This document shows positions 14,485-62,095 of a DNA stretch of 64,000 bases, in pieces (positions within the stretch are counted from its first letter, which is position 1; each line of letters starts with the position of its first letter). The notes under the pieces are model-generated. The model was given only the letters and a program-made list of their open reading frames with translations, was not told the DNA's origin and searched no databases. The DNA is from Psammoneis japonica (taxonomy: Eukaryota). Location: contig QPGO01000076.1 of the NCBI GenBank assembly GCA_008632985.1, forward strand, positions 124,001 to 188,000, read 5' to 3'. A program made the translations under genes and the position numbers.

Positions 14485-15339
14485 AAAATGTGAGCTGCAT
14501 CTCACGTCAGTTTATGCCGCATCTATCATAATGTTACAAAACCTGTGTCAAGCTTTTATTCGCTAGCAACGGAATCTCCATTGTGCCATTCGACTCAGCT
14601 GGCCTCAGATGTCTAGACACTTCAAAACCCACAGATTGTCTTGACTATGCTCGAGTCAAGATCGCAGTGTATCCGATTCAGTCACTGCAATGCAGAACAC
14701 AGACGCAATGTTGCGCAACTGTCCACAATGGCGGCTTTGGCCCCTCTAGAGCTTCTGGGTTGCATCTGCAAGGTGCCAGCAAGGCTCCATTAAACTGAGC
14801 ACCACACTGAGGGTGCCAGCCAGTCCATGCCTGTGAAAGCTGGCAGTGCAGTGATGCTGTCATCAGGCACATTTGCAAACTCCCTGTCATGCATGCATTG
14901 CCCACAGAAATGGAGGCAGTGGGTGTGTGGGGAAAATGTTGTGTTGCTGCACCTTCAAAGATGGCTGCAACTGCAAGCATCCAGTGAGGGAGAGCTGTTT
15001 CTTGCGCCACTTGTTGACCATCTTGCCAGTGACACATTCTCCTGGGTTTGGGGCAAAACATGGTCCAAACTGGCCAAACCTCTGGCATGAGAGTTGCAGA
15101 AGATGTGTGCACAAAAACAAGTCACAGATGCACAATGTGGCACCACTGACCATTTGTTCCATCAAAACACCAAGAGCTGCCTGAAGACCAGCATCACTGA
15201 CAGATCTGCCACAAAGGTCATGTGGGGTGCACTTCAATCTGGGTCAGCTCAGAGGTGCATGGAGGAGGCTGCCACATCTGCACCTCCAAGGATGGTCCAA
15301 TGCACAGGCAGTGCAACAACCACATTGTTGCTGACAATG

Positions 15340-16215
15340 ATGCAAGGCACATGGCTGGATGGTGGATGGCAGATGGCGGATGGTGGGTGGCAAATGACCA
15401 GTGCTGGATGACAGATGGCAGGTGGCAATTGGCAGATGGCAAGTTGCAGATGCTGGAATTTGGGTGCTGAATGGCAGATGGTGGATGGCAGACAGTGAAT
15501 GCTGGGTGCTGGACATTGTGGGTGCTTGATGGCAAATGGCAAATGGCGGATGGCAGATGGTGGAAATCAGATGGCAGATGCCGGGTGGCAGATGGTGGGT
15601 GCTTGATGGGTGCCATTGTCATTGCACGCAGTCCAACATGGGGCTGCTCTAATTTTTTGGAGTCTTTTTCAAGCAAAATCTTTTCTCCTGCTCTGCATGT
15701 GTGTGCAGCTGATGGTGGATGGCGGATGTTGGATGGCAAATGACAGATGCTGGATGCTGGATGGCAGATGTTGGATGCTGGATGGCAGATGCTGGGTGCT
15801 GGATGGCAGATGTCAGATGGCAGATGGCAAATGGCAGATGGTGGATGGCAGACAGTGGACAGTGGATGGTGGATGGCAGATGGCAGATGGCAAATGACCA
15901 GTGCTGGATGGTGGATGGCAGATGACAACTGGCAGATGGTGGGCTGTAGATGCTGGAATTTGGGTGCTGAGTGGCAGATGGTGGATGGCAAACAGTGAGT
16001 GCTGGATGCTGGATGCTGTGGGTGCTTGATGGCAAATGGCAAATGGCAGATGGTGGATGGCAGATGGTGGAAATCAGATGGCAGATGCCGGGTGGCAAAT
16101 GGTGGGTGCTTGATGGGTGCTGTTGTCATTGCGTGCAGTCCAACATGGGGCTGCTCCAATTTTTTAGAGTCTTTTTCAAGCAAAATCTTTTCTCCTGCTC
16201 TGCATGTGTGTGGAG
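15340..16215. repeat. Degenerate 7-bp (GATGGCA/GATGGTG) minisatellite organised as a ~510-bp tandem duplication
   Basis: Identical anchor 'caagcaaaatcttttctcctgctctgcatgtgtgtg' at ~15670 and ~16177; 'caaatgaccagtgctggatg' at 15391 and 15891. Confidence 0.85.
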
Positions 16216-19200
16216 CACGTCAAGCATTTTCTCATGCATTGTTTCCATTTGTGATTTCTTGTTCTTGTTTCCAAACAAACTTCCAATCAGCAATGTGCTG
16301 GACATCAAAAAATCATGTCTCTGTTGCTTGAAGACCAGTTGCTCCAGCGCAGCTTGCACAGCGGCACAATGCTGTGCACAGAAAGCACAGCAAAAAGGCC
16401 GCTGCCAACAACATGCCAGAAAACGGATTGTCCATGTGTCCAGAGGTGTGTCTTTCAGGTCAAATGTGTGCAGCATGTTGCCTGGGACTTGATGCATGTG
16501 TTCAACAACTGTGTTTGCTCATGAATTTTGTGCAGTCATTGGCTTGCACTTTGTGCCACAGTGCTCTTGAGCCATGTTTCTTGATTGGCATCCAATGAAC
16601 TCACTTCCATGGTCATGTGCAGTCAACTGTGGCAAAGGACATCTGCTTGGCCATGTCCATTCTAACAATCCAGCAATGGTCATGGACTCTTCACTTGGAA
16701 TTTCCACAACTTCAAACCACCCTGTTGCCAGATCAATCATTGTCGAACATTTCAGGACTGGGGATCTCTTCTTTCTCTTGTGATGCACCTTGTGTGGTCC
16801 AATGAGATCCACACACAGCGATTCCCACGGCGCCGTTTCTGCAAACTCAGGGGGTGATTGTCCACATTTCTTTTGTTTCTTTTTAAATTTTTGGCACGTC
16901 TCACATTTTGACACATGTTTTTGCATGTCATCATGCAGTGCAGACCACCACAAGTGTTGTGAGATTGTTTCTTCAGCCCTGTTTGTGCACTTTTTGCAAT
17001 GTCTTTGGTGCCACAATTTTTTCCTTGTGACACTTGAGCAACCAGTCTTGCTCGCCTCCCTAAAAAGTCTTTGCACAACATGTCATGTCCAACAATTTGG
17101 ACAGAATGTCTTCACCCCACTTTTGTTCAGCATCAAAAGCTTTTCATGTCAATGGAAAGACATTGTTGTGGGATTCAGGTGCAACTTTCTCAGCCAGATC
17201 TTCAATGCTGAGGTTTTCCATGTGGTTGATTTTTCCACAGCAAGTTGGCTGATTTTGTCTGCGATGATGTTCGCCTTGCCCTTGAGGCAAATCAATCCAG
17301 GACTGCATTCTTCTGTCATCAGTCACCAACACATGACTCTGTCCATTGTGAAGTTCTCATGGTTGAGATTCTTGTGATCCACACGCATTTTAATTGGTTG
17401 GCCAAACAGCACATTCTGGAATTCCTTTGGTGTTTCCACAGAGGACAGAAGTTCTTTTTTCGTTGCAGTGCAGCATGTCTGCACTCCATTTGGCTTGCAG
17501 CTGCAGAAAGCAACAGGTCAGTTGCTTTTTGTGCAATGGCTGCCCCAATTGAGAATTGCTCACATCAGCACATGTCTCAAAGGGTTTGCTGAAATTTGAG
17601 CATGGTGATGACAGATCTTTTGAAACAACTTGCTTTGTGTTTTTGAAGGCTTTTTGTTCTGTTTTGGTCCGTTGCGGCTTGACCTTGGATGAGATGAGTT
17701 TAGCCAGAGGAGCAAGAATGTGAGACTGCCAAGGCCACATGTCTTGACAGCAGCCAATCACACCAATGAAACATTGCAGTTCCTTGCAAGTTTTTGAAGT
17801 TGCGATCAAGTGGATCACTTCCACTTTCTTTGGCATCAGACCAACGCCATTGTGGGTGACATGGAAGCCCAGACAGCCCACTTTGGGTTTGATGAAGAAG
17901 GGCTTTTTGGCACTGACCTTCAGCCCGGCTTGTTCCAGGTGCACAAACACCATTTCAAGCTTTTTGAGATGGCCCTGAAAATCACCTTTTGCAAGACACA
18001 GCACATCATCAACATGAGTTCTGACAAACTCCAGACCTGTCATGAGCTCACTCACATGCTCATTCCCGCAGGTGGTCTGCAGGGGGCTCACATTTGCCCC
18101 AAGGCATGACAACAGCGCACAACCAATGTGCATGTGGAGCCAATTTGACACGACAGTGTCCCATGTTCAAATCCAGGGAAGCAGCACACATGAAACCTTT
18201 GAGTTTTTCCAGCATGTCTTGAACATTGAGCAGAGGAAATGGAGCACATGTCAACCTCTCACTCAGTTCACTGAAGTTGGACAGAAACTGAACTTGACCA
18301 TTTTGCTTTGGTCGAACAAAAGTTGGAGCTGTCCATTCAGAACAGCTCATTTTTCTTGAGACTTTCAACTTGCGCAGTCTTTCCCCTTCCTTTCAAGCAG
18401 TCACCTCCAAGGCTTGTGCGAACTTGTGGGTCAGGGTTTCCCATTTCACTTGCCTGGAGAACCATCAAAAAGGTTTTCAAATCTTTTTGGGAGGAAGTTC
18501 AGCTGCTTCTGCTCCTCTGGAGTAAGATGAGTTGCTGCTGCAGCTGCAGCATCAAGGTTGGCTGCATGATGATCTGAGTCAAGGATCCAACTGACTCTGT
18601 CATCAAGACCAATCATGGCATGAGATTCCCCAATGTGACCGGCAATTAACTTGAACACATCAGCGCCAAAGAGTGAGTCAACATTCTGCGTTGGTGTGGT
18701 TGCTTCTCCCCATTTGATTTCTTCATTTGCACAGTCCATGAATGACTTGAAGAAGAAGGGTTTTCATCAACATGTGCCGTTGTTTCTGTCATCTTGTGCC
18801 CATCAAATTCAGGCAAAGAGAGCGGCATTGAACAGCAACTGTCAGTCGTGAAGACAGCCCACCCTTGGTTTCCCAAGTTTTGGTGGTGAATTTCTTCATT
18901 CTCAATTTCTGCGTGAATTTGTGCAAAATTGTGGTTGACAATGTTCCGCTGTCAAGGAGAACATGCAGAGGCTTGTTCTTTGCTTTGCCTGAGCAATGAT
19001 TGCTGGACTGGCATGAATTGCTTTGGCCCTTTTTCTGGGCTTCCTGACATCTAGCAGCACATGAGACACCTCGAGCGATGCTGGCCATTCTTCAGAATTG
19101 CTGCATGTCATTTTTTCAAATTGACAATTCTCCTTGCTGAGGGTGTCAGAACTGCACTCTTTGCACTTTGTGTTGTTGTTCAAAGAACTCACCTTGAGTG

Positions 19201-20280
19201 TTTTTTTGAACTGCCTGGACCGCCATGGCATTCAGCTCTTCTTTGCAAGCAGCATTTTCATTGTTGCAACGCAACCACATGCAACTGCCATTTGAACAAC
19301 ACCTTTTTGGATCACATTTGCAGCTTCCATGGTGTTGTTCTTTTGCTGGTCGTTCAATCACCCAGCACTTGTCTGTGCATGGTCAGCAGATTTCTTGCAA
19401 CAGCTGCGTGCCACTTGATGGACTCAGATCATTTGGCACCAGATTGGCAGCCATTTTTGGAGCCAGGATTGGACCCATCTTTGGCTTTTGATCCAGGCTT
19501 GTTCCTGGTGTCAGCTTTGACATGGGCAGCATCAAAGACCTCCTCAGCAACCTCCAAAAGCTCTAAAAACTGGACCACCTTGTTTGGCGCATGTTTCAAA
19601 ATCTTGAAACCTTGGGCTGTCAACTGGCGCTGCCATTTGCAAGGTGCAAGATTGCAGAGGATGTCATTGAGCTCATCCTCCTTGATCTTCTGACCTTCTT
19701 CAAAGGGAGGACAAAGCTTGAGGTCTTTGTTGACTTCTTGCACCCAAGCAGCAATTTCTCGAATCTCTTCCTCATGCTCTCTGGCTTTTTGAGATTGTGC
19801 CGCAGATGACGCTTCTGAATCTGAAGTGTGCTCTTTGGGAAAACATGCCTGGTGAGGTGCTGTTGACATTTTTCAAGGTTCCTTTGCTCTTTTTGTTTTC
19901 AACATTCACAGCCCCATTCTCAAAAGCATGCAGAGCGTCTCCCTGTGAAGCGACATGCACACAAGACGGAACTCACCCAGTTGCTTCTTGACACTCTGAC
20001 CCACCAAGAGTTGCTTGCAGTTCTTTGAGAATTTGGTGCATTTGGGGATGCATTGCTTCTTGCAGTGCTCAACACTGATGGTGCAAGCGCGGCTGTTCTT
20101 CTTTCTTGGGTGAAAACACTGCTCCATCTTGAGGCACTGACTGGCTTTGAGCATCTTTGGTTCGGAGATTGATTCTTCCAATGGCTGTGGCACAATTTTC
20201 TCTTGCTTGAAGGAAAACTTGGCATCAGCAACATGAGGTGATGAAAGCTTCATTTTTGTCTTGGCACCTTCTGCGGTGTG
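16210..20280 (-). mobile_element. Heavily degenerated Ty3/Gypsy LTR retrotransposon body (gag-PR-RT-RH-INT); LTRs not identified
   Basis: PR 'VLLDSGT'; RT 'LDLNMGHC', 'PWGKCE', 'RTHVDDVLC'; RH-like 'FETCADVSNSQLG'; INT 'PWESLCVDLIGP', 'MIDLATGWFE', 'HDHGSEF'; Gypsy domain order; many stops and frameshifts. Confidence 0.92.
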
Positions 20281-20831
20281 CACACACGGCGCACTGTGCT
20301 CGAAGAGTGGGTGTGCAAACGAAAGCAGAGCGAAGCACGAAAAGTGAAAATTGTGAGGCTCAGAGCATTGAAAAGGCCATCAGCAGCAGGCACTTTCTGT
20401 TAAAAAAAAAAAACAAGCACTCACAAGAATCGCACGACTTTGCGCATGCACTTTACCTTCGACTTCCAATGTTGTTGCAGATGTTCAAAACACCCCACAC
20501 CCTTTGTTTGCTTGTCTTTATCACCCACGACTAACTCGAGACCCCGGCGTCTGTGCTGGACAACCACTATGACTCTCTACTAGCTAAATATATAATATGT
20601 TCATCCACAAGCCTTGGAAAAGCATTCCGAAATCTGAAAATGTCTGCTCTTGTTGCTCATAAATTCATACCTTCCCATGACATATCTGGGGCAAGAGTTT
20701 TTGTCCATTTTGCGTACATCACTTGCGAATTGGCTTACTCCGATGGTCATAGTCATTCAATGACATAAATCCCTCCACTCGCTGGTGAGTTCAGTCACAA
20801 TTTATTTCATCACGACAACACACAATGAACT

Positions 20832-22294
20832 ATGACACGGCGGAGCTTAGCCGCTATTGCAGCTCTCATTCTCGCTGCCGCATCTAGCGTTTGCAGTGAG
20901 CATGAAATGGTATCACGACGAGATCGGGTAGTCATCAAGAAAATCTATGAAAAAGAGCTTCTTCCGAATGGCTCTTACTCCTACAACTTATCCTACTATC
21001 CGATTGACATCCCCGCTTCGGAAATAAGCTCTTATCCCGTCGATACATGCGGAAGAAAGGATCCCTTTACTGCTTTTGTTCTTGTTGAGCATACGCTTAA
21101 TGACACTGAAAACATCACCAGGCAGACGAGATTGTTGATGCAGGATGCCTTTAAAGAAACGTACAACTCAATCAACATGCCCAAGCCGCCATACAGTAAT
21201 ATTTGCGACGAAACACATATGCGCGTCGTTGAAAGCGTTGAACTCTCAATTTCGGATGTCATATACAAGAAACTTGAGAATCAAACGGACTATATCAGGA
21301 ACTTCCTCTACAAAGTAAAGGGGCTTGGTGTGGGCATAAAAGAAGAAACAAAAATGTTTGAGCACGATCCTGAGGTCTCGAAAAATCCTTCCTACATGTT
21401 TGAACCATATGATCCAGGTGCTTGTAAATGCCCCTTCAACATAACGGAGAACCGGGGTGCAACAACTACAGAGTTTCTGACTGCATTCAGGTTGGAGGTT
21501 GAACTGATTGCAAGTCTTAGACTGATTGACAATTTCAAGAGCGTAAATCGTGTTGTTGAGTACGACGCTGTCGATTGCAAGCCGAAGGAGAACAACTTCT
21601 TTTCGGATGTGTCTGTGATATTCGACGAAGAACCAACTCCTGAGGATTTTGCGTCCCTAAAAGATACTTTCCAGAATGCCTACAATCACGTGACAGTGTA
21701 AGTTACGGTGTTAGTACGTTTGTGCCTTCTTGGTTTTTGCTTTGCCAAACCATCTCCTATACACTTCCCGCGCCCATCAGAAACTATTGTGACCCCAGAT
21801 TCCGGTTTGTGAGAGACGTTGAGATAAAGCATCCAAGACAGGACTTTCGGAGGTTCCTCATTGGCAAGAACAGGAAAAAAAGGATGAACGTAAGGGTGAG
21901 AGGAAGGTGCAGGGGCTGCCGAGGACGAGTGAGATTGTTTAACGATGCAAGCGATGTAACTCTCAAAACACGGGCATTACATGATGTCGACGACGACTAT
22001 GAAGATTTAGATGAATACGATGATGACGAAGCCTACCAAGATGGGGATAACAACGAAAGAGAGTTGGACTCCTCGAATCAGGAAAACTTTGATTGGCACC
22101 ATGTTTTCAAAGGAAAAGACGTTTGTTTCTGCGCCCTTCGCCCGAAAGGAGTTGGTACTCCGTCTGACTCGGAGTTTGAGAAGCGTTATGTTGAAGAACT
22201 TCGAACAGCGCCGGTAGTCGAAGAGTATCATATTAAGAAGCTGATTGAGCGCAAAAAGAAGAAGAAGAAACCCAACTTGCGGCGTGGACTGTGA
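20832..22294 (+). CDS. Secreted protein of unknown function with RXL-like motifs; 2 exons (intron ~21698-21780)
   Basis: Signal peptide; long ORFs 20832-21701 and 21722-22294 joined by GTAAG..CATCAG; RRFL/RAL/REL and CRGC motifs. Confidence 0.75.
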
Positions 22295-25776: not shown

Positions 25777-26207
25777 CAAGGTCTACAGAAGAAGAGAGAT
25801 AGAAAGGAGTTTCGCCGGCAAGGCTTTGCAAATCGATGTACAGACTCAGTCTCTTCAACGCGAAATAATACATTGCAATAGTGCATCGCAACAAGTCTTT
25901 TGAACTAATCCGTTACCACGAACGTTTTTCTCCGACTCAAGTTGGCTCATTGCGAGCCGCCTGGTTACGTGTCACCGACCCCAAAGGCACAAAAGCCTTC
26001 CTTAGGAGTGAGGAGATTCAGGGTGGACTTCTTTGATGCAATTGTTTTGGTAACACCGGCCTTCTCGTACGATCATCAGTGGATCCGCCTGCTCCATTGA
26101 CTTGAGTAGCTCGGTCCGCACTGCCGTCGTTCTCTCGGGTGGGGGCTTGTCAAGCACCATAGCCGCCTCAATGCCAGATGATATTACTTTCTTTCGAAGT
26201 TCTTAAC

Positions 26208-26385
26208 GGTTACGAACCCCAGTGGATAGGCAGCTAGCAAATCGAACTGTGTCTGGGCAAAACGGAGTTGAACTGATGCCATTCTCAGATTGCACTGAAG
26301 GAAGACAGATGCCCCGCATATGGCGACTTTTTAGTGGGCGATGAATGACGACGGCCACTACCGACCTGTGTATGTACCTGTAGCG
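26208..26385 (-). repeat. Diverged ~180-bp copy of the 3' end of the class C GPCR gene
   Basis: Aligns with ~31711-31885 (VQSENGI...VRF.SCLSTG in both). Confidence 0.85.
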
Positions 26386-27914
26386 ATTCTCCGCCTTATC
26401 TTTCAATTATTAGGCTCCTTCAGGTGACCACTTCATTCAATGCTCACGGATGGGTTTCGTAACGGATGCCGAGATTTTCGGCTGCGTCTATAGAATCTGA
26501 CGACTGAAATGCGCGCGCATCGTGATCGTTCCGAATGAGTCCGAATCGGGCGGGATGCTCGAGATGCTATCCCATTTACTCACAACCCGCTTCCTCCTTC
26601 CACGACAATTCAATCTTATCAAATAGAAATGAGCTGGGTTCAGCAGCAACAACAACATACGCCATGTGAACGTTTTTTCACGCCTTTTTTATTCATCAGC
26701 TTCATTTCTCACCATGTCGATGTGACGCGACGACCGACGAATCACCGTCATTGAGTGCTCTCTCGCTAAGTCCTCCACAATGTTCACAAAATTCACACCA
26801 AAAAAATGCCATTCAATTTACGCAAAGCCCTTTCACAGTCGCGTGTGAGCGCAGGTGAAGGACGGATCGAGTTGCATGGCTCAATGGGGGGCATGCCGTC
26901 AAAAGTCTGTGGTGCTCTGAGCCAACTGCGGCAGCTCCACTTCCTTCTTCAAATGTCAAAGGATGGTGGAAAAGACCTCGAGTCCCTTCATGCAATGCGG
27001 CTCAACTTGGCGCATGAGATCCAAGGAGCGTTTGGTGCTTTTGCAGCCAGCGACTTCAAAGCATGCCCAACCGACCTGATGAAGCACCCATCCTGTTTCA
27101 ATTGCTTGGGCAAGAGGGGGCAGAGAATGTCCGCAAAGCCTCACAGCAGCGGTGCTGCTGGCACACCAAGAAGGACATGTGGTGGTGCAAGCAATCCAAG
27201 GTGAATGCAAATGATTTTTGCACTCAAAAACAAACACTGTAAATGTCCTTGTTCAAATGCCGAGGCAACTCTGGGACAAACACGGGGATGACCCCGGTCG
27301 GGCGGTTGCTGCATTTTTTAGCTCAAATTTGGCCAGTTTGGCTCGTGATTTTCTGCTGAAAAATTGATTTGCCGCACTTGGAACATGGCAACAATGGTGG
27401 CTTCAGATGATCCAGGCAAGTGCAGTGGAGGTGGTCCATCTGCCAACTCTTGCTTGTTTTGCATTCCTCATGTGTCAAAGATGTCATGTGCATCAAAAGT
27501 TTGTAGACGGCATGCTGCGTTTTTGAGAGCAAACAGTGCTTGTCAGCCAGTGCCATTGCGACACATCCATGATGACACTCACGCTTTGTTGCTTTGTGTT
27601 TTTCAGGCAAGGCAAAGAAGTGCTGCAAAAGACTGAAAATACAAGATGAGAGGACTCAACAGAGTCATGCAAAGGCAATGGCGGCTGAGAAGAAGATGCT
27701 TTCAGCAGCCTTGCTTCAAGCCAGAAGTGACTCCAACTGCTGAGTTTCCAGTGCATGCTCTGAGTTGCACAAGTGTGTCCCATGTGCCAAGAGCCATGGG
27801 GAAAGATTTCCAATGGCAGACTCTGACTCGCCATTGGTGGGAGCCAAAGATGCCAAGTCACCAACCCTTCAATCCCTCCCAGAGTTGTCAAATGGTTTCT
27901 TTGATGAAATCATG

Positions 27915-29060
27915 TCAAACGGGCGGCAACTCACTGGTTTCTGCTGCGGCATCAACCGAAACTTTGGGAAGCTCTGTCAAGGATGGACGAGCGCCATTTT
28001 TGTTCCACACATCACACGGTGACCACAACAAAGCTGTGGTGTCAGCATCAAGTGGCTCCATGACGTTTGATGTGGACAGATTCAAGACTGTGATGACAGA
28101 CGCACCATGCATGTCAAATGAAGTCATGCAGCTGCCCACAAAAATGCGAGTCACTGTGCAACCATGTTGCTTTTCCAGACAGCCCAAAATGGAGTTGGTC
28201 AAGATTGACATTTCAAAATTAGATGTCCAACCCAAATTGTTGATGAGGACACAGAGATTGTCTCCTTTTTCAAACATGGGAATGACTGCTTCTGATTCAT
28301 TGACACGCCCATGCTTGTGAGTCGCATCAATCATCTCTTTTGCAAGTTCCTTGCTTGACAAAAGTGCAGACTGCTTTGCCCCAGCTTTGCCATGAAGTCC
28401 AAGACCAATTTCAATCATGTTGTCATCATCCAGACAATCTTTGACCGCCACTGCACCAGGCACCATGACTGCATCAAGCGCCACACCCAATGTTCCCATG
28501 TGTTTTGCAGTCAACGCAGCAAAGTTTGCCACACCCTGCAAAGATTTCCCTTCGGCAGCAGCCGCTCCTGCAATCTGGTGAACAAGGGTGGTTTTGGAAA
28601 TGCCTCAAGCTCCAGCGACACCCTTGGTTCTCTCCGAGGCTGTGTCATTGGCTGCAACCACCACTTGGCAGGAAACACCTTCCAAGCTGGCTCGCTCACA
28701 TGCCGCTCCAAAGCTCAAACAGTTGCCGACGCAATTCTTTGCCACTGGCAGAATGGGGCTTGTTTTCCCACACAAAGTGGCACAAATTGCAGCCAAGATG
28801 GCGGCAACAGAGGGAGATGCAAAGATTCCTCCTGGAATGGCTCCACTGAGCATGCCGTTGCCTGTCCATCCTGCATGACTCGGCTCATGTCCGCCACCAC
28901 CACTGCTGAAAATCTGAACACCCGCTCTGGCCTTCAAGTTGCTCTTGAGCACAACATGGTGATTTTTCAATTTTGTGAGGCAAGTCAGATGTTGCAACAG
29001 CAGACCAGCAATGAATTCATTGACAGCATCGGCTGGATCGTTCTTGATGATCATTTTTTC
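27915..29060 (-). pseudogene. Dihydroxyacetone kinase (DhaK/DAK1 domain) pseudogene inside a TpA-depleted island
   Basis: SGGGGHEPSHAG, GGIFASPS, KNCVGNCLSFG (cf. KNYTGDRLNFG), IEIGLGLHGKAG, VLINNLG, SCMTSFDMHGASV; frameshift near 28600. Confidence 0.9.
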
Positions 29061-30252
29061 GGCTTGGACGGCATGACACTTTTCTGCTGTGCGAGCTGAG
29101 CCAAGCAACAGCCAACCATTTTGCGCGAGGGTCAATCACTGCTGGGAAGACTTGCATGGACATTCTCAGCAAGAAGCTCCTTTGCACAAGGGCTGTCGCT
29201 CAAGAGCACGGAACAAAAGCTGCGGCCCAACCAACCAGCTGTGACCTGTCTTGTGAGTCGCAGCCGAGACAGCGAGTTCTTTGAGAATTGCGCTCACTTT
29301 GCTCTGCTTGTCAATGACCATGGCATCATTGCACACTTTGTTGGAGTTCTTGAAGATGCACATGCAAACGCGGAACAGGGGCCCACTTGTTGATGGATCA
29401 TCGCCGAGTGCATTTTGCTCTTGCTGGAGCGGTCGGCTGAGTGCAAGAGTCAGTTGAATGGAGTTCACCAGCGATTGGAGTGCACACAGTGTGATGGAAA
29501 AAACTGCTGTTGTGACAAGCAGAAAGCTTTCATCAGCTTCCACAGTTTGCCCACACCGCTGCGATGGCTTGGTCGCCCACATGCAGTCATCTGGGTTTGG
29601 TTTGACTTTCTCCGCACCCGCGGGACAAAATTTTTTGTCCCGGTGTTTTCTCCACTCAACTCAAGTGCAGCTGTCATTTCATTGTCATTTGTGTGTTTAA
29701 TCACACATTTCCTGGTGTTGTGTCATTTGAATGGAAAATGTTGCCTTTCCTCTTTGTCAGCGACTTCAGAAAAATGACTCGGCTTGACACATTTCGACCC
29801 ACGGACATTTGGTTTGGACACTTGCAAAGCAGGGTGCACAGCCGCCCAGCTGACAAAACCCATGCACAATGCAAAACTTTGAACAGGACCGAAGATTTCG
29901 GAAATTGTCGCCAAAAGTCACTCTTCCATGGTGTCTGCACACATCTCCAGCATGTGTGCACATCTGCCCGTCACTTTTTTGCACCCTGTTGCCCTGGTCC
30001 ATTCAGATGTGTCGTCCGGTTTTGCACATGGCACGGATCTCTTCGCAGTTGTCCAAACTGCAGGTCCAAAGTCTGTCCTGGGGCTTGCTGTGCCATTGGA
30101 CAAAACTGTCACGGTCGAAACAGCAAACATTTATTTGTATTTATTTGAATAGAAAAGTTTTGTTATTTATGTTGGCATTCTTCATAATGGAAAATGTTGT
30201 TTAAATACGGCAATCGCGCGAAACCGCATGGGTACGGAAAAAGTTTTAACGC

Positions 30253-30341
30253 GACCCAAAATTCCTCCGAGACCCAAAATTCCTCCGAGACCCAAAATTC
30301 TCCGAGACCCAAAATTCCTCCGGGACCCAAAATTCCTCCGA
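30253..30341. repeat. Tandem 18-bp repeat (GACCCAAAATTCCTCCGA) x5
   Basis: Directly visible; one copy is 17 bp. Confidence 0.9.
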
Positions 30342-31710
30342 ACAGAGAGTCACAGTGGAGCGCCGACCCACACTCGGCCTTGTCTTTTTGATGAGCAATT
30401 CATTGAAGACACGGATGTTGCTTTCAGGAGTCCGGATTCTTCGGCAAGGCCCTTGCTTGGTTTGGCCAGAAGCGGGGTTGTTGTTGGGTCTTTTCGCTTG
30501 GCGGCAAACCCGTGCTTTGGCGTGAGAAGTGTGCTCTGTCTTGGGTGGTGTGCTGTGTGTTTGATCTTTGTCGAGAAAGGCACCCGGCGCGGCACACCCC
30601 TTTGTTCCGAAGCACGGAGCAGTGTTTTTGCACTTTATGGTGTGTGCTGACAGGTTTTTCGATCTCTGTGACAGGTGTGCATGATACTTATGACTGTCTT
30701 GTTCTGTAAGAGTGGAATGATTGCCTCAGGGCAGATGCGAGCGACCGCATCATCATCGTGTTTCTGTGGTGATGTCGAGCACTAAGTCGGTGGGGTGTAG
30801 CCGTTGTATCGTCAAGGGTTTGGCTTTTCGGTCGGCTGTGGATATTCGGTACTCGCCATGGGAATGGCCACGACTCGAGCATTTGGAATCAATCCTTTAT
30901 CATCCTCCATGGCAGGTCGCCTTCTCTCTCGACGAGCACAGAGCAACAAGAAGAAATTCAAGGAATTTGACAAGAGCCCTCGCTTGAAACGCTTTCTATT
31001 AGCACTCGGAATCTCACTGTTTCATGCCTTGCTCCTGCACTTTACGCACTCCGTATTGTCGCAGATGGTGCCGTCACCAAAGGATGAATTGGCTTGGCGT
31101 TGTTCTGGAGATCAAACAAATACTTTGCTGGTCCTACGTTGTGAGTTTATCGTGTTTGTCGCCACCCAAACTACTTGGGAGACGCATTGTTTTGTTTAGG
31201 CTTGGCGGTCAGCGGTGTGGCGAGCTTTGGTTCCAACATAATTACACGTCACGACCAGCATTGGATTGTATGGTATTTTCTCCATAATGACTTTCCAAGA
31301 AAGCCGAGAAACTGTGGAAATGGACGATGAACAAGGACCTCCACATCGATTTTCCTGTGCGTAAAAAGCGAGACTTTTACTCCATCTTGGCGAACGCCAT
31401 GAACGGTTACATTCGCATCAAGTCTTCAATTGAGGTATTTCTCATGGTCAATAATAACTGTAGCAGTTCCGGTCGAGTACGAGAAGAAGGATGAACGAGA
31501 ACTATAACATCATGTATGTTGTACAACGGGTGATCTTGCGTTGTAGCTAGTAACTCTTACTCTAGAGAATCTATGGAGACGATACAGCTAGATAGTAGTA
31601 ACTCCGAATATTCTAGTCTAGAGCCAAGACTGAAAGTAGGAAAAAGAGGAGAATCAGTTTTTCTTTCAAAGCGACAGGATCGCCTTTGGGAGACGATGTT
31701 GTCTCGACGC

Positions 31711-34394
31711 TTACGATCCAGTGGATAGGCAGCTGGTAAATCGAACTGTGGCTGGGCGAGTCGGAGTTGAACCGATGCCATTCTCAGATTGCACAGTAGG
31801 AAGACACGACACCCCATATGACGACGCTTTAACAGGCGATGAATGACGACGGCCATTACTAGCCTTTGTACCAGACGTCTGTGTGGGTCGACCTGGAAAC
31901 GCCGGCCTTGCACCGAACGCCATTGGTGCCACTCCGTCTCTGTCGCTCAAATACATTGATGTTCGAACTGCCCGTCGTCTTGTGGATTCCAGAGGCCGTG
32001 CGTTCCGATTTATGTACTTTGGGACAAACAGTGGTACCTGGATGGCGAGGCAAATGATGGTGACCAATATAGAATGCATCAAAAAGTAAGCAGATGGAAT
32101 ATCCGCCACCACAACCAAAATTGGTACTGCCAAAATAAAGGCTTCAACTAAACTCGCCAGAGAGATGGTAATGTAGGTACTTTCGTTGAAATTTGAGGGA
32201 GGAATATTTCGTGCCTTGTACGCTTGGTAGGTGGCAGTCATCAGAGCGATCACATTCACCACGGCAAGACAGGACACAAAGATCCGTTGTTTCGTCGAAT
32301 CCAAGGCCAGGCATGTCCCGTAGGACTCATTAGACCGTCCAAACTCATCTGATTTTGTTTTTTGAACTCGCGTCCATTGAAGCGGCGCTATTATTGTCCA
32401 AGCTATCAGAATGGAAAGATTGAGACCCATCAAAACTACAAAAGGTAGCAACACGTCGTTGGCTCGTATCTTGACTCTTCGGAACTCGCGGCTCATTGCA
32501 AAGACTCGGTTGAGTCTCCACGTCTTGGAGAAGAGCGCCGAGAATGACGTAACGAATCCAATAGACAATAGCCACGGTGTCGCCATGCAAGCAATGTCTA
32601 ATCCACGTTGAGAAACTGGTTCTTGTAAGCCCTGAGGTATTATCGAGCTTGCCATGATAAAGGTCCCAACACACAGTTTAACAAGAAACACTGGTTGTGA
32701 TGCACGAACAACGGGCTTATTCCGATACAAAACGGTCCATATCAGCCACCCCAAAGACATAATCATGACAATAGTAGCGAGGCCGTATCCAAGGACATGC
32801 ACCCATGGACTAATCAAGTTCATATCTTCTTCCAGTGGTGGCAATGCCAATGGGGGCGTAATATCTGGACTTCCCGCATACACAAAGGGTCTGACTTCCT
32901 CAATACTACCGGCCAAATCAATGACAGCCGCTACTTGAGATTCAAATTGTATGAATCCATCTTGCATTTTTCCGTTTGAAATAACATTGTGGACAGCATA
33001 AATCAAGCTATCCGAACTTCGTGTTCCCGTGTCAACATTAAACTCAACAGTTCCGGAAACGCCCTCAAATGAAGTATTCAACAGAGATTCATAAAGCTCA
33101 CGTCCTGAAAAGAAATCGTTTTCTGCGTTGCATGCTGCCAATCCCATGGCCATGACGGCGTCGTAATTCAAGTATTGATACAGCGACGAACCCGGCATTT
33201 CAAAATCGTAATTATCAAACAGTTCAGGTTCAGTCTTTGAGAGAGCAGAGCACAACGAGATTGAGACGGGGTAGAATAAGTCAAAAGCCGTATCATGCTG
33301 CTATTATCTCAATTGTGAGGACTTACGTGTCTTGAAATAAAATACTCATGCAATGTGTCATTGGTACTAAACTCCTGCAGTGCCGCGTCAAACTCTGGAT
33401 GAGACGGTACGTCAATTACCACCACGCCAACACCATGAATGGCTCGAACCAAATCCATATCTGTAACTGCATTCAATCGAAAGCTTGGATTGAGCAATTC
33501 CAATGTTGATTCCGACAAGAGCCATACATAACCTGTATTCCCAACTATCCCACGTTGATAGGCTTGTATCAGCATTTCCCTGTAGGTTCGTGGATTCGGT
33601 ATGCCGAAGAAATACTTTAATTTTGATCTTTCCAGCACATCGATTGCTTTATCCAAACTGCCCTCCACATCATCTTCATACGGTGCCGAAACTACCGTTA
33701 TGCCCATCTCCCGAGCTAGCTCTAACACGTCTTTGTGGAAATAAGTTCCGTAATCGTCTCGCACATAAATGACTCCAAAATTCTCTACATTCAAACTCCT
33801 CAGGTACAGAAGGACGGCATGAGCATCGCCTCGATTGTTGGGTACGGTTCTAACAAAATAAGTAAACGCATCCTTATTGTCGAGTGTTGCAGAAGTGGAG
33901 GTTGCTGATATTTGAGGGGTCTGGTACACACTTCCCAGGACTGCTACACTGGAAGACACAACGGAGCGAGCGGCACCCACCAGCGCTGTTGGCTTTACGG
34001 ATGATTGAGTTTCGGCTTTATGATATTTTCCTGACGCGTGTATTGGACTGAACTGTGTATCCATGTAATCGACAGTCCAGTAAACATTGCAATTCTCCAG
34101 AAGCGAAGTCAACTGGGGCAGTACTTTTGAATCTCTCTGATTGAAATGAACCATGGCGAGAAAACCGCTTGCTTCCAACCCAATTCGAAAGTCAATCGGT
34201 TGTCGAATACCTTGAACTGAATCGAGAGATGAGAGCGGAAGAAGACTGGTCAATTGGCATAATCGAACCGTGTCGTTCTCATCGTCATCCAGCACTTGAA
34301 TCACTGTAGAATCTTGTCGCGACTCGCTGTTCTTAGCACTGGAACTGTTTCGTAATTCATCATAGTAACCAAGCGGTCTGTTTGACAACGCCAT
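31711..34394 (-). CDS. Class C (GABA-B-like) GPCR: ANF-receptor/Venus flytrap domain + 7TM; 2 exons (intron 33326-33235)
   Basis: LVGAARSVVS, PQISATSTSATLDNKDAFTYFVRTVP, FEGVSGTVEF, VVRASQPVFL, SALFSKTWRL, FNESTYI; start codon uncertain. Confidence 0.9.
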
Positions 34395-41035: not shown

Positions 41036-41129
41036 GGTCGTTTTAAGATTTGTCGGTCCTGCCAACATTTCGCAGTTTCGTTTCTGCAGATTTCGTTGCC
41101 TCGCACAACATGCGGGAGCAATGTCACTG

Positions 41130-43989: not shown

Positions 43990-45770
43990 ACGTGCTTTTT
44001 CCATGTGACGAGCTCACGCATTTTTGACACAACTTTTGACACAACTTTTCACACGGGTCAAAGTTGTGTCACATTTTCAAAAATGCACATCCAGGCACAT
44101 TTAAAATTCCTGCAAGACTTCCAGTGCAAATTCTGCACAAAGAAATGGAGCCCAGGTGTGAATTTTGAAAGTTGTGCTGCACATTTTTAAAAACGCATGT
44201 GCGGGTTCTGTTGCACACAGAAGTCCAGTGGATCCTGCATCCTGCCACAATGTCAAAGTTGGGACATTTTCAACTGTGCACACCTGGATCTTTGCACAAC
44301 TCTTTTTTGTCCCACACATTTTTTGTGTCAAAAGTTTGTTTTTTTGCGAGGTGGTGTCGGCAATGAATTTGTGTCATCCAACAGATTTTGTGCTGGCAGG
44401 CAAAATTCACATCAATTTTGACATGCAGGTGGTGAAAATGGCAATTTCCCACAGACCCGTCGGCATGCCAAGTTTTGCTCCAAAGTTGGCACACCAAGAT
44501 TTGTGCTGAAGTTGGTGCACCAAAACATGTGCCAAAGTTGGCATGCCAAGTTTTGACCCAAAGCTGGCATGCCCAGTTTTGCTCTAAAGTTGGCATGCCC
44601 AGTTTTGCTCTAAAGTTGGCATGCCAAGTTTTGCCCCACAGTTGGCATGCCGTGTTTTGTGCCAAAGTTTGGGTGCCGGGTTTGCTCCAAAGTTGGCAGT
44701 GCCAGTTTTGTGCCAAAGCTGGCATGCCAAGTTTTGAGCCAAAGTTGTCATGTCAAGTTTTGCTGCAAAGTTGGTTTGCCAAGTTTTGTGCCAAAGTTGG
44801 CATGAGGAATTTTTCTCCAAAGTTGGCATGCCAAGTTTCACACCAAAGTTGGCATGCCAAGTTCTGCCCCAAAGTTGGCATGCCAAGTTTTGTGCCAAAG
44901 TTGGCATGCCAAGTTTTGGGTCTGCAGGAAATCATGTGTTCAAGCAAAAAACAGAGAGTCTGTGTGAGATTTGAGGGCCATTTGCAACAACAATGGCGCA
45001 GCCACATTGCTTTTCCTGTGTGACAAGCTTGCGTGTTTTTAACACAACTTTGGAACAGCTTTTGTCACAAATCAAAGTTGTGCCACAGTTTCAAAAATGC
45101 ACACCTGGGTGATGTCAGAATTCCTGCGAGACTTTCAGTGCAAATTCCACACTAAAAAAGAAAACCCAGATGTGCACTTTGAAAGTTGTGCCACACATTT
45201 TGAAAAATGTGCACGCGGGTTCTGTCGCATGTGGAAGTCTGCTGCATTCCTGCACAACACAAAAGTTGGGACATTTTCAATTGTGCACATGCCCGGGTCT
45301 TTGCACAACTTTTTTTGCCCAACACATTTTGGTGTCGTGTGTCAGCAACAAGTTTGTCTCATCTGACAGATTTTGTGCTGGCAGGCATGGCTTGCATCAA
45401 TTTTGATGTGCAGGTGGTGGAAATGGCAATTTCTCGCGCAGACCCTTTGCACCAAAGTTGGCATGCCAAGTTTTGCCCCAAATTTGGCATGTTGAGTCTT
45501 GCTCCAAAAAGGTGGTGTGTTGAGTTTTGCTCCAAAGTTGGTGTGCTGAGTTTTGTGCCAAAGTTGGCAAGACCAGTTTTGCTCCAATGTCGGCATGCTG
45601 AGTTTTGCTGCAATTTTTGCAAAGCAGCTTTTTCCCCAAAGTTGGTGTGACATGTTTTGTGCCCCAGTGTTGGCATGCCAAGTTTTGCCCCAAAGTTGGT
45701 GTGCCAAGTTTCCCCCCCAACAGTGGGCATGTCAAGTTTTGTGCCAAAAAGTTGGCACTTTTGCGCCACA
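43990..45770 (-). repeat. Two ~1-kb tandem units, each ending in a reverse-complement array of the 26-bp repeat (~44462-44915, ~45450-45760)
   Basis: 'tcaaagttgtg..ca..tttcaaaaatgcac' at ~44060 and ~45072; 'gtcaaagttgggacattttcaa' / 'acaaaagttgggacattttcaa' at ~44252 and ~45259. Confidence 0.85.
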
Positions 45771-46663
45771 AAGAGCTGGCACAACAGGGGATCCGTCACA
45801 AGCCTTGTCGGTCATTGGCGATGGCAATTTTCACAGTGGAGTGGTCCAAAAGATTGATCTGGCTGACCATCTTTTCCAACCAAATGTCACAATCAGAAAG
45901 ATGCATTCACAGTGTGGTGGTCAAGAGCTTGCACCCACCAACGGCCACACACTCGGGCCCCTCTTCTCTGCACACTTCTGGAGCGCAACAAGTTTCTCCA
46001 TTGACAAACCATTGCGGCAGGTTTTGTTTCATCAACCTTGGGTGTGTTTGCTTTTGCAGCCCACAACCTTGTGCAAACTGACAGAAGCTGCCCCCCCCCC
46101 CCCCTTCACTCATTTTTGTTGTGGGCCTTGGTCACTCCTCGCTGGAGGAGAGCGGCTTCTGCACCACCCTCCTGCTCTGGCTGTGCTTGCTCCTCATTGA
46201 TTGCAGAGCTTGTGGTTGTTGTCTTGTCTTCACCACAGATTCGATGAAGTGGGTCCGATTGACAAAGTTGTGTGCTTCTGCACGAGCAGTTTCCAGTTGG
46301 GCCGGACGAGCATTGAATTCGACAGGTTTGCGATGAGGAGTCCTCCTCGTCGTCCGCCACCCCCCGCGGCGCGCCACGCACGGCGCACGCAGCCGCAGCC
46401 GCAGGTTATTGTTGTTCCCACCCGTCGAACTCATCGCCCATCGCACATCAACGCTATGAAGAGGACATGGGAAGGCACGGGGAATGCTTTCCTATTCCCT
46501 GGATGTCGACTGATGAGACTCCATTCTTCTCTTTGTATGGCTTTGAGTGTGAATGTTGCGTGGTGTGCTAGACACTGCTGAGTTATTACCGTTTTTGCGG
46601 TAGACACCGCATAAAAATGAGACAAACGCGGAGGTTATTGCTTAGCCGTACCAACTCATCCTG

Positions 46664-50149: not shown

Positions 50150-50820
50150 TGGAATTGTTCGACATGTGCACACAATGCAACAATGACAACGACTCCATGC
50201 GTCGCACAGGAGTGACCTCACACTGAGACCCCCACATCAATGGGAGAATCCAAAGCCCAGTGGATCAGAATTGAAGATCTTCTACTGTTGCAAAAAGGCA
50301 AGAACATGGCAAAAGTGAAAGTTGCCAAAAAGAGCTGGCACGCAGGTTTGCCACCAACATGTGCTCTCCAGCTTCGGGTGGGACCTTGCACTGCTGGACT
50401 GTGACATTTGTGTTTTTTTATTTGCACCACATGCCATGCAGCTGCATGACTCTGATGGTGGCATTTTGCACCATTTTGCAGCGCAGCCGTCGAGATGTGG
50501 TGTTTCTGGCTTGCTGTTTTGCTGACGATGCTGGCCAGCTGTTGTCAGCCACATCTGCGTCTCTGAGCAGCAGCACGCACTTGGCCTTCTGGATGAAAAC
50601 AAAAAAGGGAGTGTGTCTCTCTGTGCTGCAGATCTTTCCATGCTGGCTTCGCTGCTGCTGGCTTTTTGAGCACATCGCAAAATTGCGAGTCTTTCTGGTG
50701 TGCTGCTGGTTCTCTGAGAGATGGCGGTGACTCCTGACATTCCCATGTGCAGCATGAGTTCTTTTCACCATGGCAAGATTCCAATGAAGCCACGTTCCCC
50801 ACGACAAGCGCGGGGGGTGA
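50150..50820. mobile_element. Small TpA-depleted repeat fragment related to the 35.8-kb sequence
   Basis: 'gggtgggaccttgcactgctggactgtgacat' (~50376) vs 'gggtgggaccttgcgctgctgaactgtgacat' (~35855). Confidence 0.6.
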
Positions 50821-50988
50821 GATTAGATCTGTAAGAGTCAGCGAGTCTGTCAGACGTCAGAGATCTTCCAGCGATCTTTTGTCTGTTGAAGAGGAAAGAT
50901 ACGAGATCACCACGTGCCGATGCACGACTCGGTGCTCGATGCTTTCTCACAAAAGCTTGACATGTGATCCTTCTTCCTTGGATGCACC

Positions 50989-52234: not shown

Positions 52235-52265
52235 NNNNNNNNNNNNNNNNNNNNNNNNNNNNNNN
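52235..52265. other. Assembly gap (N run) after a poly-C tract
   Basis: Run of n characters. Confidence 0.99.
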
Positions 52266-59565: not shown

Positions 59566-60009
59566 AATTTCCGCTCTCTCGTACGTGCACACTTAGCGCT
59601 TTGTTAAAATGAAACTTCTATATGCAGCTGTTGTTCAATAGGAACGTGAAGCAATGAGCAATGCGCAAAGCGCAACGTGGGTGAGGTGGAACAGAGTATC
59701 CATTGCGATCTTTCCTTGCGTACGGTACGATACTCGTTTTGATCGATTTTTCGAAATCGCGTAGCCGTCGTAAGATTTGTACCAAGATGATTAAAAGCTC
59801 TATCCCCGAATATAAATTTAGATTTTCCCGCGCAAATTCATCTACTCGGGTACCCGTAACCCGGAAATAGCAGCACTGCAACTTTGATCTTTTCGCGCAT
59901 GACGCGTGAGACAACCAAAAGATGCCATTGCGTTTGACAGTCATTCTAGCCGCTGAATCAATCCTTCCGCAACACACCATGGCACTGATGTCTCTCAAGT
60001 GTGTTTTAC

Positions 60010-62095
60010 AGATGGTCAGCATCCATGATCCATGATCAAAGAATGACTGACCTGCTGGAGCTCAACACCAGCATCAACACAATCAAGTGGAGAGAACAGG
60101 CGCGCCAGAGATGAGAGAGCAGAGCTGGCAAGTGTGCCAAGAGAAAAATGCTGCTGTGGAACAATCACCTTGCAAGTCAGAAGAAGAAGAAGAAGGGGCA
60201 GTTGAGCCTCCACCCAAAGTGGAGTGAGAGACAGACAATGAAGCGAAGAAGAAGGCAGAAGAGGCGAAGTCAGGACAAGCAGCTTCTGTGCCGTGGAAGA
60301 TGAAGGAAAGAACGGAGAAAGAGGGCGACACAAAACACGCAACCCCTTTGAGCATCCCAAGGACTGCACACCTGGAAACAAATCAAGCATTGGCCAGAAC
60401 CATGTGCAGGAGCTCAAAAGGAAGAAGAAAGGCAAAAAAGATGAGGCAAGTGCCAAGAAAAGACGAGACCTGTCCTGCCAGTGTTGCAAAACATCAAAAC
60501 TCAGACAAATCTGTGCTTCAGGTGGTGAAAGCTTGCTCGCAAGTCAACAACCATGCAAAAATTGTGCAAATGTCATTTTTGTGCATGACTTGGTTCATGC
60601 GCAGCTGGGGCATCATGTCATGACAAAAATGCACCTCCCAGCTGGTCTGGCCCAAAAGACAGCTGCTTGGTGCGTGGGGATCACTTCTCTTTCTTCATGG
60701 GCTTGAGAGGCTGATGACCACAGAATTGACACCACCCAGAGTTAAGATGGAATTTGACCATGCACTTGGTTCTGTGACTGAGCAAGACAAGCTCTGGTGC
60801 TGCAGCTCAGCCAAGTCATGGAAACAATCCACAGCACACCCCAGTTGAAGCCTCCACACCAAGTCAGGAGTGCACTTCAAACACACCAGGGTTGTCAGCC
60901 TGCATGTGGACAACATTCATGCCCCTGGGACTGGTTGTCCATCAACACAAAAATTCAAATGCATCCACCTGCTGCCAGTGGCAACCCTTCAATTGCTTCA
61001 TGCCAGCTTCTGCCCATGGCACTCAGCTGCCAGCATCATGCAGCACCACATTTTGCTCTCTCTTTCACTCCTTTCTTGTTCTTTGCTGGATTCTCTGGGG
61101 TGCACATGTTGAGGAAGGCATCTGTCAAATTGCACCTTCCATTTTCCCAGACATGGGGGATCCCCGTGTGCAGCAGCCAAGGGGTGTCACACTCCACGAG
61201 ACTGTGTGTGTGTGTTGCACTCTCCATGACACCTGAATTTGTGCTGTTTTTCCACACCTCATTTTGATTTCCCTGGTGTCTCACAATGACAGTTTTCATT
61301 GCCAGAAATTTCCCAAACAAATTTGCTGCACTTTGAACCAGTTTGATTTTGAGATTGTGTGCGATCATGCAGCAAGAGTCTTGGGGCAAGAGATCTTCTG
61401 CTGTGAGCAGCTGCCGCCCACATCATCAACTCCCAACTGTTTCATTTGTGAGACAGCCCAGCTGCAAGAGTTCCTTTGCTTCTTTCTCTTTCTTTGCTGT
61501 CACCTGTTGGGTTGTGAAATGATGCATCATGGCAGTGCGCCCATCTGCAACAAGCCTTTTGTGTCAAGATTGTCCAAACTGGTCAGTGTGTGAATTCATT
61601 GCCTTGTCTGCCTCAGGAGCAACATCCTTGCATTGAGTGGAGCTTTTGGAGAGGGAGAGAACCCAATCAACTGAGTGCAAACTCTTGGCACTCAATGATG
61701 ACTTGGAAAGGACCTCTGCTGAAGTCCTTTGGGAAGGTGTTGGCTCATTGCTTGTTGCTTGCAACATTTCTGATGAGCTCTGTGCGCAGATGAGTGCCTT
61801 GAAGCAAACTCTGCTTGTTGCTTTTGTCACTTTTCCATCTTGTTGCCCTCTTGAGAGCCTGTCATTGGGTGCTTGAAGAAACAAATTCTTCAAGAGGTTG
61901 TTGTCATCATTTTGGCAAATCCTTGCAGCTCGTCTGCCGAGCCGTTCCAGGGGAGAGCCGGACCTCAACGCTCCACTTCAGGCTGCACCAAGAAAGAATG
62001 AAGTGCCAAAGCAAGTGAACAAAATCAGTCTTCATTTCTGTGGGAAAACATCCCCACAGCAAGTTCACAGGCCACTCTCTGGATGCATTTGGCGA
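60010..62095. mobile_element. TpA- and CpG-depleted degenerate island of unknown origin
   Basis: I found only one TpA (TTAA, ~60743) in ~2.1 kb; TE origin is inferred from composition only. Confidence 0.5.

Follow-up and report, generated by a model that had tools for sequence, protein, structure and literature searches.

A signature of region-confined TpA to TpG/CpA hypermutation in retrotransposons, repeats and a dead gene copy of a likely diatom genome

Repeat-induced point mutation (RIP), known from Neurospora and other fungi, is the textbook case of a genome mutating its own repeats. It acts premeiotically on duplications, needs the cytosine-methyltransferase-like RID as well as DIM-2, and converts C to T, mostly CpA to TpA, raising TpA and lowering GC. 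Hyper-editing of animal retroelements and viruses by ADAR and APOBEC enzymes, in turn, takes place on RNA or single-stranded cDNA before integration and leaves strand-biased, clustered tracks. Here we describe a 64-kb stretch of contig QPGO01000076.1 of Psammoneis japonica (positions 124,001 to 188,000, hereafter the window), in which five islands consisting of Ty3/gypsy retrotransposons, a dead copy of a Dak1-domain gene and unclassified repeats or blocks have lost nearly all of their TpA dinucleotides and gained TpG and CpA. The pattern is very probably the result of targeted TpA>TpG/CpA hypermutation.

A system chemically opposite to RIP was first reported in 2026, in one alga. In mutation-accumulation lines of the chlorarachniophyte Bigelowiella natans, 230 of 231 de novo mutations in a region of integrated giant-virus DNA and a virophage region were A>G/T>C changes, all of them at TpA, and these regions mutated at ~6e-7 per site per generation as compared with 3.5e-10 elsewhere (bioRxiv 10.64898/2026.01.13.699255). 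According to the available text of this preprint, the B. natans genome carries 124 TpA-poor clusters rich in CpA and TpG, its TpA-poor gene models are enriched in reverse transcriptase and DDE domains, the main target is single-copy, and Mettrop et al. propose an ADAT2-like adenine deaminase (bioRxiv 10.64898/2026.01.13.699255). That same portion of the text mentions neither CpG nor diatoms and gives no context beyond TpA. The kind of mutation discussed here has therefore already been described, contrary to the preliminary description of this stretch, which was made from its letters and knew of no described pathway. A search of the literature, most subscription journals lying outside it, turned up no diatom for which loss of TpA or hypermutation from A to G had been reported, and within that scope the diatom case is new; a search of the same reach returned no report of a natural genome defence by adenine deaminase.

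The sliding-window ratio check proposed in the preliminary description, run within the 64-kb window, revealed blocks with an observed/expected (o/e) TpA ratio of 0.00-0.05, in which TpG and CpA were raised to 1.6-2.3 (Table 1). Taken together, the six blocks (islands 1, 2, 4 and 5 and the two outer parts of island 3) contain 29 TpA against ~770 expected at the flanking rate, which confirms the near-absence first noticed by eye; the manual counts of ~14, ~7 and 1 for islands 1, 2 and 5 were close to the values obtained here. The rest of the window has a TpA o/e of 0.60, equal to 0.043 TpA per position. With this flanking rate as reference, the Poisson log10 P per block ranges from -7.5 to -85, and none of 1000 mononucleotide shuffles per block came near the observed TpA counts. 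The block edges, which were set at the last flanking TpA, are sharp, the density dropping from one TpA per 20-40 bp to zero in at most 100 bp. Two of the limits given earlier required revision. The island placed at 34640-46400 holds for both of its outer parts and is not uniform, its core being a younger gypsy element that retains 64 TpA; the island placed at ~50150-50820 does contain a TpA-free block and is better started at ~50200 (1, 1 and 0 TpA per 200 bp over 50200-50799 versus 8-18 upstream). The neighbouring genes are normal in composition, with 1.4-5.2% tyrosine and TpA o/e of 0.37-0.86, as against 0-0.7% tyrosine in island open reading frames (ORFs). Because TAA and TAG stops need TpA, long ORFs occur in all six frames of the islands, and 45 stop-to-stop ORFs of at least 150 aa overlap 14000-47000.

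Table 1. Coordinates and composition of the TpA-poor islands and of the features within them (positions in the window)
Feature	Position	Strand	TpA (count; o/e)	CpG o/e	Remarks
Island 1	14792-20400	-	12; 0.03	0.21	Old degraded Ty3/gypsy
Tandem array, GATGGCA type	15711-16071				7/14/21/42-bp units, inside island 1
ORF with rve/Integrase_H2C2 match (Pfam)	16522-17082	-			Island 1
ORF with RVT_1 match (Pfam)	17393-18166	-			Island 1
Island 2	26820-30131		6; 0.03	0.49	Dead Dak1-domain gene copy and unclassified repeat
Dak1-domain (dihydroxyacetone-kinase) pseudogene	27933-29150	-			Single frame, one in-frame TGA, zero tyrosine codons
Unclassified repeat	~29270-30600				Island 2
Island 3, left part	34692-36344		2; 0.02	0.43	With right part, one older unclassified element split by the gypsy insertion
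26-bp tandem array	35015-35577				Inverted relative to the 26-bp arrays of the right part
Target-site duplication	36341-36344, 41562-41565				CTGA, 4 bp
Young gypsy core of island 3	36345-41561	-	64; 0.22	0.91	Complete Ty3/gypsy insertion, partly hypermutated
Gypsy long terminal repeats	36345-36776, 41130-41561				432 bp, each TG...CA
Gypsy pol frame	36819-40013	-			Protease/RT/RNase H/integrase; 1065 codons, one in-frame TGA
Island 3, right part	41562-46406		8; 0.03	0.34	Count from 41563
43-bp repeat	43700-43821				Island 3, right part
26-bp arrays	44459-44918, 45446-45757				Island 3, right part
Island 4	50420-50823, better 50200-50823		0 (in 50420-50823)		Short unclassified TpA-free block
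Island 5	60008-62098		1 in 2091 bp; 0.007	0.19	Unclassified CpG-poor block, TpA-free but for this one site

The timing of the change is recorded in the long terminal repeats (LTRs) of the young gypsy element, which its TG...CA termini and the CTGA target-site duplication identify as a genuine insertion. The two copies differ at 29 bases, which group into 18 events without any indel or isolated transversion: nine TG<->CA doubles, four TA<->TG/CA, four CG<->TG/CA and one mixed event, in which a C<->A difference is joined to a TG<->CA double. Clean ordinary substitutions are absent, and 17 of the 18 events are transitions at pyrimidine-purine (YpR) steps. As the LTRs of an element are identical at insertion, the 17 differences of TA/CG type arose after integration. 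The TG<->CA doubles are the outcome that would be expected if one and the same ancestral TA had been hit independently on its two strands, and CpG hardly explains them, since only ~6% of CpG changed per LTR. As estimated from the pair, each LTR would have possessed ~25-27 ancestral TpA, of which ~80% appear to have been hit in each copy, compared with ~6% of CpG. On this one LTR pair, in which no more than a single ordinary change is seen over 432 bp, the mutation of TpA may have run at roughly 1000 times or more and that of CpG at roughly 50 times the background.

The ancestral state can be read from the pol frame of the same element, in which Pfam recognizes RVT_1, RT_RNaseH_2, Integrase_H2C2 and rve. 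In an alignment with 60 relatives (49-57% identity), a tyrosine column was regarded as conserved when at least 70% of the relatives carried Tyr. Among 30 such columns, 13 are now Cys, 13 His, one Tyr and three other residues, and the overall Tyr content of pol has fallen to 0.19% versus 3.8% in the relatives. Other conserved residues were largely retained (Gly 37/37, His 11/11, Pro 35/36, Arg 35/39; in all, 449 of the 548 conserved columns other than Tyr). With 26 of 30 conserved tyrosines converted to Cys or His, the ancestor must have had TAY codons, from which TGY and CAY arose equally often, in agreement with the TA ancestry that had been proposed from protein motifs. Judging from its sequence, pol is inactivated by these and similar changes.

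The 128 changed conserved columns of pol comprise 33 TA>TG, 28 TA>CA, six A>G/T>C outside TpA, five CpG and two other C>T changes, the remaining 54 being transversions or multi-step changes, which would be expected with such distant relatives. Considering single transitions only, 61 of 74 are TA>TG/CA. Enrichment of A>G at TpA had been named beforehand as a test, and it was found on both strands: 33 of the 38 A>G changes are preceded by T, and 28 of the 29 T>C changes are followed by A. Along pol the TG and CA outcomes follow each other in 33 runs versus 31.3 expected, i.e., without clusters.

These observations bear directly on the possibility that retrotransposon RNA or cDNA was hyper-edited by an ADAR-, ADAT- or APOBEC-like enzyme and inserted afterwards. 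Two of the blocks are indeed retroelements, and the A-to-G editing of RNA by ADAR and by fungal TAD2/TAD3, with its preference for 5' U/T, resembles the signature. Editing before integration is nevertheless extremely improbable: LTRs copied from one template would not be expected to differ at 17 places of TA/CG type, the two strands were hit equally (Cys:His 13:13), the affected sequences include, besides retroelements, tandem arrays, a gene copy and non-coding blocks of no known class, and the loss of TpA stops where composite blocks stop and not only at the ends of retroelements.

Comparison with related sequences addressed a further explanation, namely an artefact of sequencing, base-calling or assembly, or else a native TpA-poor composition or selection against TpA. 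The assembly is a draft with a run of N, and the platform of X1, a public run with a word depth of ~60 in which the letters were checked, is unrecorded; X1 is possibly the window's own source sample. An X1 contig (2924 nt, depth 59.7) matches 26600-28143 with two differing letters and no half-depth alternative, so that the check on independent reads suggested at the outset repeats the island letters in this part, with the same caveat on the origin of X1. As for native composition, TpA o/e was at least 0.59 in 78 of 79 related gypsy loci from metagenomes (median 0.77), and all of the 120 proteins closest to pol contained at least 2.95% Tyr; the relatives of the element are not natively TpA-free. 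The same signature was found outside the window. A 2.9-kb microbial-mat contig (L056) encodes a gypsy pol 48% identical to ours, with TpA o/e 0.24, CpG o/e 0.56 and, in 579 codons, three Tyr versus 23 Cys and 21 His. Furthermore, three of the 149 cluster representatives related to pol lack Tyr and one has 1.3%, and in these four proteins, which stem from records of Logan, JGI/IMG and ENA, conserved Tyr columns are occupied by Cys or His in 13/17, 12/13, 6/9 and 7/8 cases. Selection against TpA would have to have acted on elements that are dead, with in-frame stops and invariant tyrosines lost. An artefact or a native peculiarity is accordingly hardly credible, and the LTR pair, the tyrosine columns, the binding of the changes to TpA and the normality of the relatives speak for a separate process on both strands, as had been claimed, beyond RIP and the decay of 5-methylcytosine (5mC).

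Depletion of CpG in the same blocks is an addition to the preliminary account. CpG o/e amounts to 0.19-0.50 in the blocks versus 1.01 outside, the TpA and CpG depletions have common edges at 100-bp resolution, and the two ratios are correlated over 126 windows of 500 bp (Spearman rho 0.66). TpG and CpA o/e reach ~1.7-2.0 in the islands, GC is slightly raised (0.48-0.53 versus ~0.46), and no other dinucleotide, ApA and ApT included, is lost, ApA o/e being 1.29 in islands and 1.14 outside. RIP, which makes TpA, was rejected as a source of islands of such composition, in which TpA o/e has fallen to 0.01-0.03. GC-biased gene conversion was discarded as well, for it would hit all A/T, yet AA/TT rise, and so were unrepaired UV TA-photoproducts in silent DNA, from which neither 100-bp edges nor near-total conversion would be expected.

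The loss of CpG is far slower than that of TpA and accounts for part of the signature only. It would be expected of silent chromatin marked by 5mC. Two metagenome contigs with related gypsy elements are CpG-poor at a normal TpA ratio (L014, CpG o/e 0.12 and TpA 0.62; L061, 0.19 and 0.62), and the CpG and TpA processes are therefore separable. Where X1 contigs disagree with the window inside island 2, four of the six differences listed are CpG<->TpG/CpA, and none is of the TpA type; CpG decay there is still polymorphic, and TpA is exhausted. Diatom transposons are reported to be CG-methylated via DNMT5a (Hoguin et al. 2023, PMC9998398), which fits the slower CpG decay in our blocks.

The dinucleotide ratios also weigh on error-prone repair, or a specialised polymerase, recruited to methylated or heterochromatic DNA and inserting the wrong base opposite T or A at TpA, the Pol-eta type with its WA hotspot (W, A or T) having been among the candidate causes of the preliminary description. 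Confinement to silent blocks that also undergo CpG decay is what such an explanation would predict, and repair differences specific to heterochromatin are known in general. A WA hotspot would, however, deplete ApA, which stands higher in the islands than outside and disfavours Pol-eta in particular; the LTR pair shows neither indels nor isolated transversions, and polymerase errors could hardly be expected to convert almost all sites with a single hit at each. We consider this explanation very unlikely.

The bases flanking TpA influence its fate. Surviving TpA were sorted into RTAY, one-sided (RTAR or YTAY) and YTAR classes (R, purine; Y, pyrimidine), and the survivors in this order numbered 0/28/36 in the young gypsy element, for which 78 related loci predict 16.8/31.2/16.1. 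The old islands retained 1/7/21, as against 9.2/15.4/4.4 predicted by the background of the window, and L056, an unrelated contig, retained 0/24/23, as against ~12/23/12; P values for the three data sets lie between 1e-5 and 6e-17. Loss is thus quickest at RTAY and slowest at YTAR. Among hits at one-sided sites, 17 fell on the strand with Y flanks and 11 on the strand with R flanks; as either strand is hit, susceptibility seems to be a property of the duplex site and not of a single-strand motif. No single-strand flank rule (TAY or RTA) could be derived from these 17 and 11 hits.

The Dak1-domain copy of island 2 provides a second coding sequence in which the changes can be followed. Pfam Dak1 matches were obtained with E=2e-39 and 7e-30, and the best relatives are diatom Dak proteins of 57-58% identity. 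Both conserved tyrosines were replaced (by Cys and His), and five of nine conserved arginines turned into TGT, TGA or CAC. Out of 34 single-transition changes, ten lie at TpA and 15 at CpG. This older copy bears the marks of both the TpA and the CpG process.

In the reading that we propose, the nuclear genome of what is most likely a diatom subjects selected blocks, which comprise LTR retrotransposons along with other repeats and the dead copy of a gene, to region-confined TpA>TpG/CpA mutation, A:T becoming G:C on either strand. The process acts on chromosomal DNA after integration, stops at the block edges and runs almost to completion. An enzyme directed to silenced, methylated chromatin may deaminate adenine at 5'-TA-3' to hypoxanthine, which is read as G, with the duplex context setting the susceptibility of the site, from RTAY as the fastest to YTAR as the slowest. 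Each TpA is hit once, because the resulting TG/CA is no longer a target; the process yields transitions only and creates no CpG. Through the conversion of Tyr codons to Cys or His codons and the alteration of TA-bearing Ile, Leu and Val codons, coding capacity is destroyed, and this rapid loss might constitute the defence. Adenine deamination would be the simplest route to pure A>G changes, and the 5'-T rule recalls TadA/ADAT. Both TadA/ADAT and ADAR favour a U/T 5' of the edited A; the target of TadA/ADAT is A34, which follows the invariant U33, and early base editors derived from TadA favoured YAC. The full chain, from adenine deamination at TpA directed by silenced chromatin to a function in genome defence, appears to us about evenly poised between right and wrong.

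Several observations weigh against this proposal. The strand outcomes in pol are unclustered, unlike those of processive single-strand DNA deaminases, and no simple single-strand motif emerged, duplex recognition fitting better than a tRNA-loop-like substrate. The signal in the Dak copy is less clean, with seven of 17 A>G/T>C changes away from TpA. Ongoing TpA mutation was not seen in island 2, none of the six differences listed there between X1 and the window being of the TpA type. Lastly, the deaminase is deduced from the chemistry of the change, and A:T>G:C at TpA could equally start from T.

In the latter case, a TET/JBP-type or similar enzyme would turn the T of TpA in silent chromatin into 5-hydroxymethyl- or 5-formyl-uracil, and mispairing with G or mis-repair would lead to T>C. 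The duplex event TA>CA/TG is silent on which base was attacked, and the symmetry of both flanks together with the equality of the strands (13 Cys:13 His; 33 TG:28 CA) would suit a reader of the palindromic duplex. In dinoflagellate DNA 5-hydroxymethyluracil is located preferentially at TpA and TpC; a literature search on its occurrence at TpA in dinoflagellates returned no report. Transversions or strand breaks are common further products of thymine oxidation, at odds with an LTR pair in which 17 of 18 events are pure transitions, and we know of no modified thymine of that type in diatoms. A start from thymine, the foremost alternative, is on these grounds unlikely.

With regard to the identity of the targets, the preliminary description had the islands coincide with transposable elements, tandem repeats and a gene copy, which holds for islands 1-3, islands 4 and 5 being unclassified by Pfam. 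The retroelement ORFs of island 1 contain 0% Tyr, 6.2-6.4% Cys and 4.7-6.4% His, and self-BLAST of the window detected no LTR pair in island 1, nor did it align the two gypsy elements with each other at the DNA level. Pfam searches of 70 further island ORFs returned the known gypsy remnants only, with no match in island 3 left (5 ORFs), island 3 right (20), island 4 (4) and island 5 (13), the flanks of the Dak copy remaining unclassified and no Dak2 domain being found.

Every island bin in X1 lies above single-copy depth. The X1 depths are summed contig word depths and not strict copy numbers, and in these terms the young gypsy element reaches 11000-21600 versus ~55-60 for single-copy DNA, which suggests a high-copy family of hundreds of copies. 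Within island 2 the Dak part has a summed depth of ~94-144 and the segment 29268-30601 one of 720-795, as compared with 50-75 in the neighbouring gene. Confinement of the process to repeated or heterochromatic DNA, as it had been formulated, is borne out as far as confinement to blocks is concerned; repetition would be no more than a candidate trigger. The 3' end of a gene for a G-protein-coupled receptor (GPCR) is directly duplicated over 168 bp with 83% identity (26206-26372 and 31707-31870), ~450 bp outside island 2; TpA is kept in both copies, and their differences are ordinary mixed substitutions. Repeat length or homology as the sole trigger was rejected on account of this untouched duplicate, which is possibly too short.

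The products of the genes adjoining the blocks include a GPCR of family C as well as a cyclin, a UvrD-type helicase and a RING protein. Their assignment to a diatom is in line with several features: the genes of the window are long and nearly intron-free, which fits a diatom, the best named relatives of the UvrD-type helicase gene are from Thalassiosira and Attheya, and all named organisms among the best 120 Dak relatives (51-58% identity) are diatoms, including Seminavis, Fragilaria, Nitzschia, Pseudo-nitzschia, Mayamaea, Odontella and Amphiprora. A scaffold gap of 31 N at 52235-52265 separates an unannotated 401-aa ORF from the helicase gene.

In the GPCR gene, which lies between two islands, ten differences from the X1/X2 contigs are listed, of which three (32149, 32950, 33365) are TpA>CpA and two are CpG transitions; this could be due to chance or to a slight spill-over of the process. 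The X2 contigs, which behave like RNA and probably are RNA, omit 33235-33326 (joint 33234>33327), a segment of 92 nt with ends CT..AC, corresponding to GT..AG on the minus strand, and a single expressed gene would then comprise the two GPCR ORFs, 31711-33300 and 33309-34445, as exons on either side of a short intron. X2 cover on the islands is next to none, and absence of cover is no evidence of silence. Just past island 2, an 18-bp tandem repeat (five copies, 94% matches) is found at 30253-30341 in a 389-bp stretch without TpA. The intergenic segment 30470-31250 shows dense differences between the window and X1/X2 (at least 28 substitution rows and at least five small insertions), which suggests a divergent haplotype or a strain difference.

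Near completion of the process in a likely diatom suggests that it is widespread or ancient; diatoms are a distant group of ecological dominance, for which genetic tools exist. It is conceivable, if rather doubtful, that diatoms and chlorarachniophytes, perhaps much of the stramenopile, alveolate and rhizarian (SAR) assemblage, share an old defence based on an RTAY-reading duplex-DNA adenine deaminase in 5mC-marked silent chromatin, which would act on either strand and inactivate transposons, integrated viruses and stray gene copies in little evolutionary time. LTR pairs may serve as a clock for such a process, and the hierarchy of RTAY over YTAR gives a concrete biochemical target; a natural enzyme making A>G changes in chromosomes, if true, would be of interest to base editing. 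The process would also have practical consequences, as stop-poor hypermutated blocks with long ORFs in six frames may be mis-called as genes, and a strong local GC-raising force of this kind is ignored by standard estimates of repeat age.

As compared with the known systems, the islands resemble RIP in heavy, region-confined transition mutagenesis with sharp limits that kills transposons and gene duplicates, and are unlike RIP in that A:T>G:C occurs at TpA, TpA is brought near to zero and GC goes slightly up. With 5mC decay they have in common the TpG/CpA products, which are found in the same blocks, and CpG>TpG/CpA accounts for four of the 18 LTR events; unlike 5mC decay, the process removes TpA, and the loss of CpG is at least 10 times slower (~6% versus ~80% of sites per LTR). 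Deamination directed against mobile elements would be common to our case and to the ADAR/APOBEC and TadA/ADAT enzymes; unlike ADAR/APOBEC editing, the changes are post-integration, strand-symmetric and unclustered, and both flanks of the duplex site matter. As far as the available text of the preprint allows comparison, the closest likeness is to B. natans, with which our locus shares near-exclusive A>G/T>C at TpA, confinement to regions and an excess of ~1000-fold over background, the high rate here coming from one LTR pair and the changes being near-only transitions. B. natans belongs to Rhizaria, and the present case is most likely a stramenopile diatom. There the evidence is de novo mutation in culture, with single-copy viral insertions as yet mildly depleted (Rho 0.45), whereas here it is historical, read from an LTR pair and Tyr codons, with retrotransposons, arrays and a gene copy at o/e 0.01-0.03. 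New in our case are the proofs from the LTR pair and the Tyr codons, the rate hierarchy in which TpA far exceeds CpG and CpG far exceeds other sites, the co-localised decay of CpG and the extended RTAY motif.

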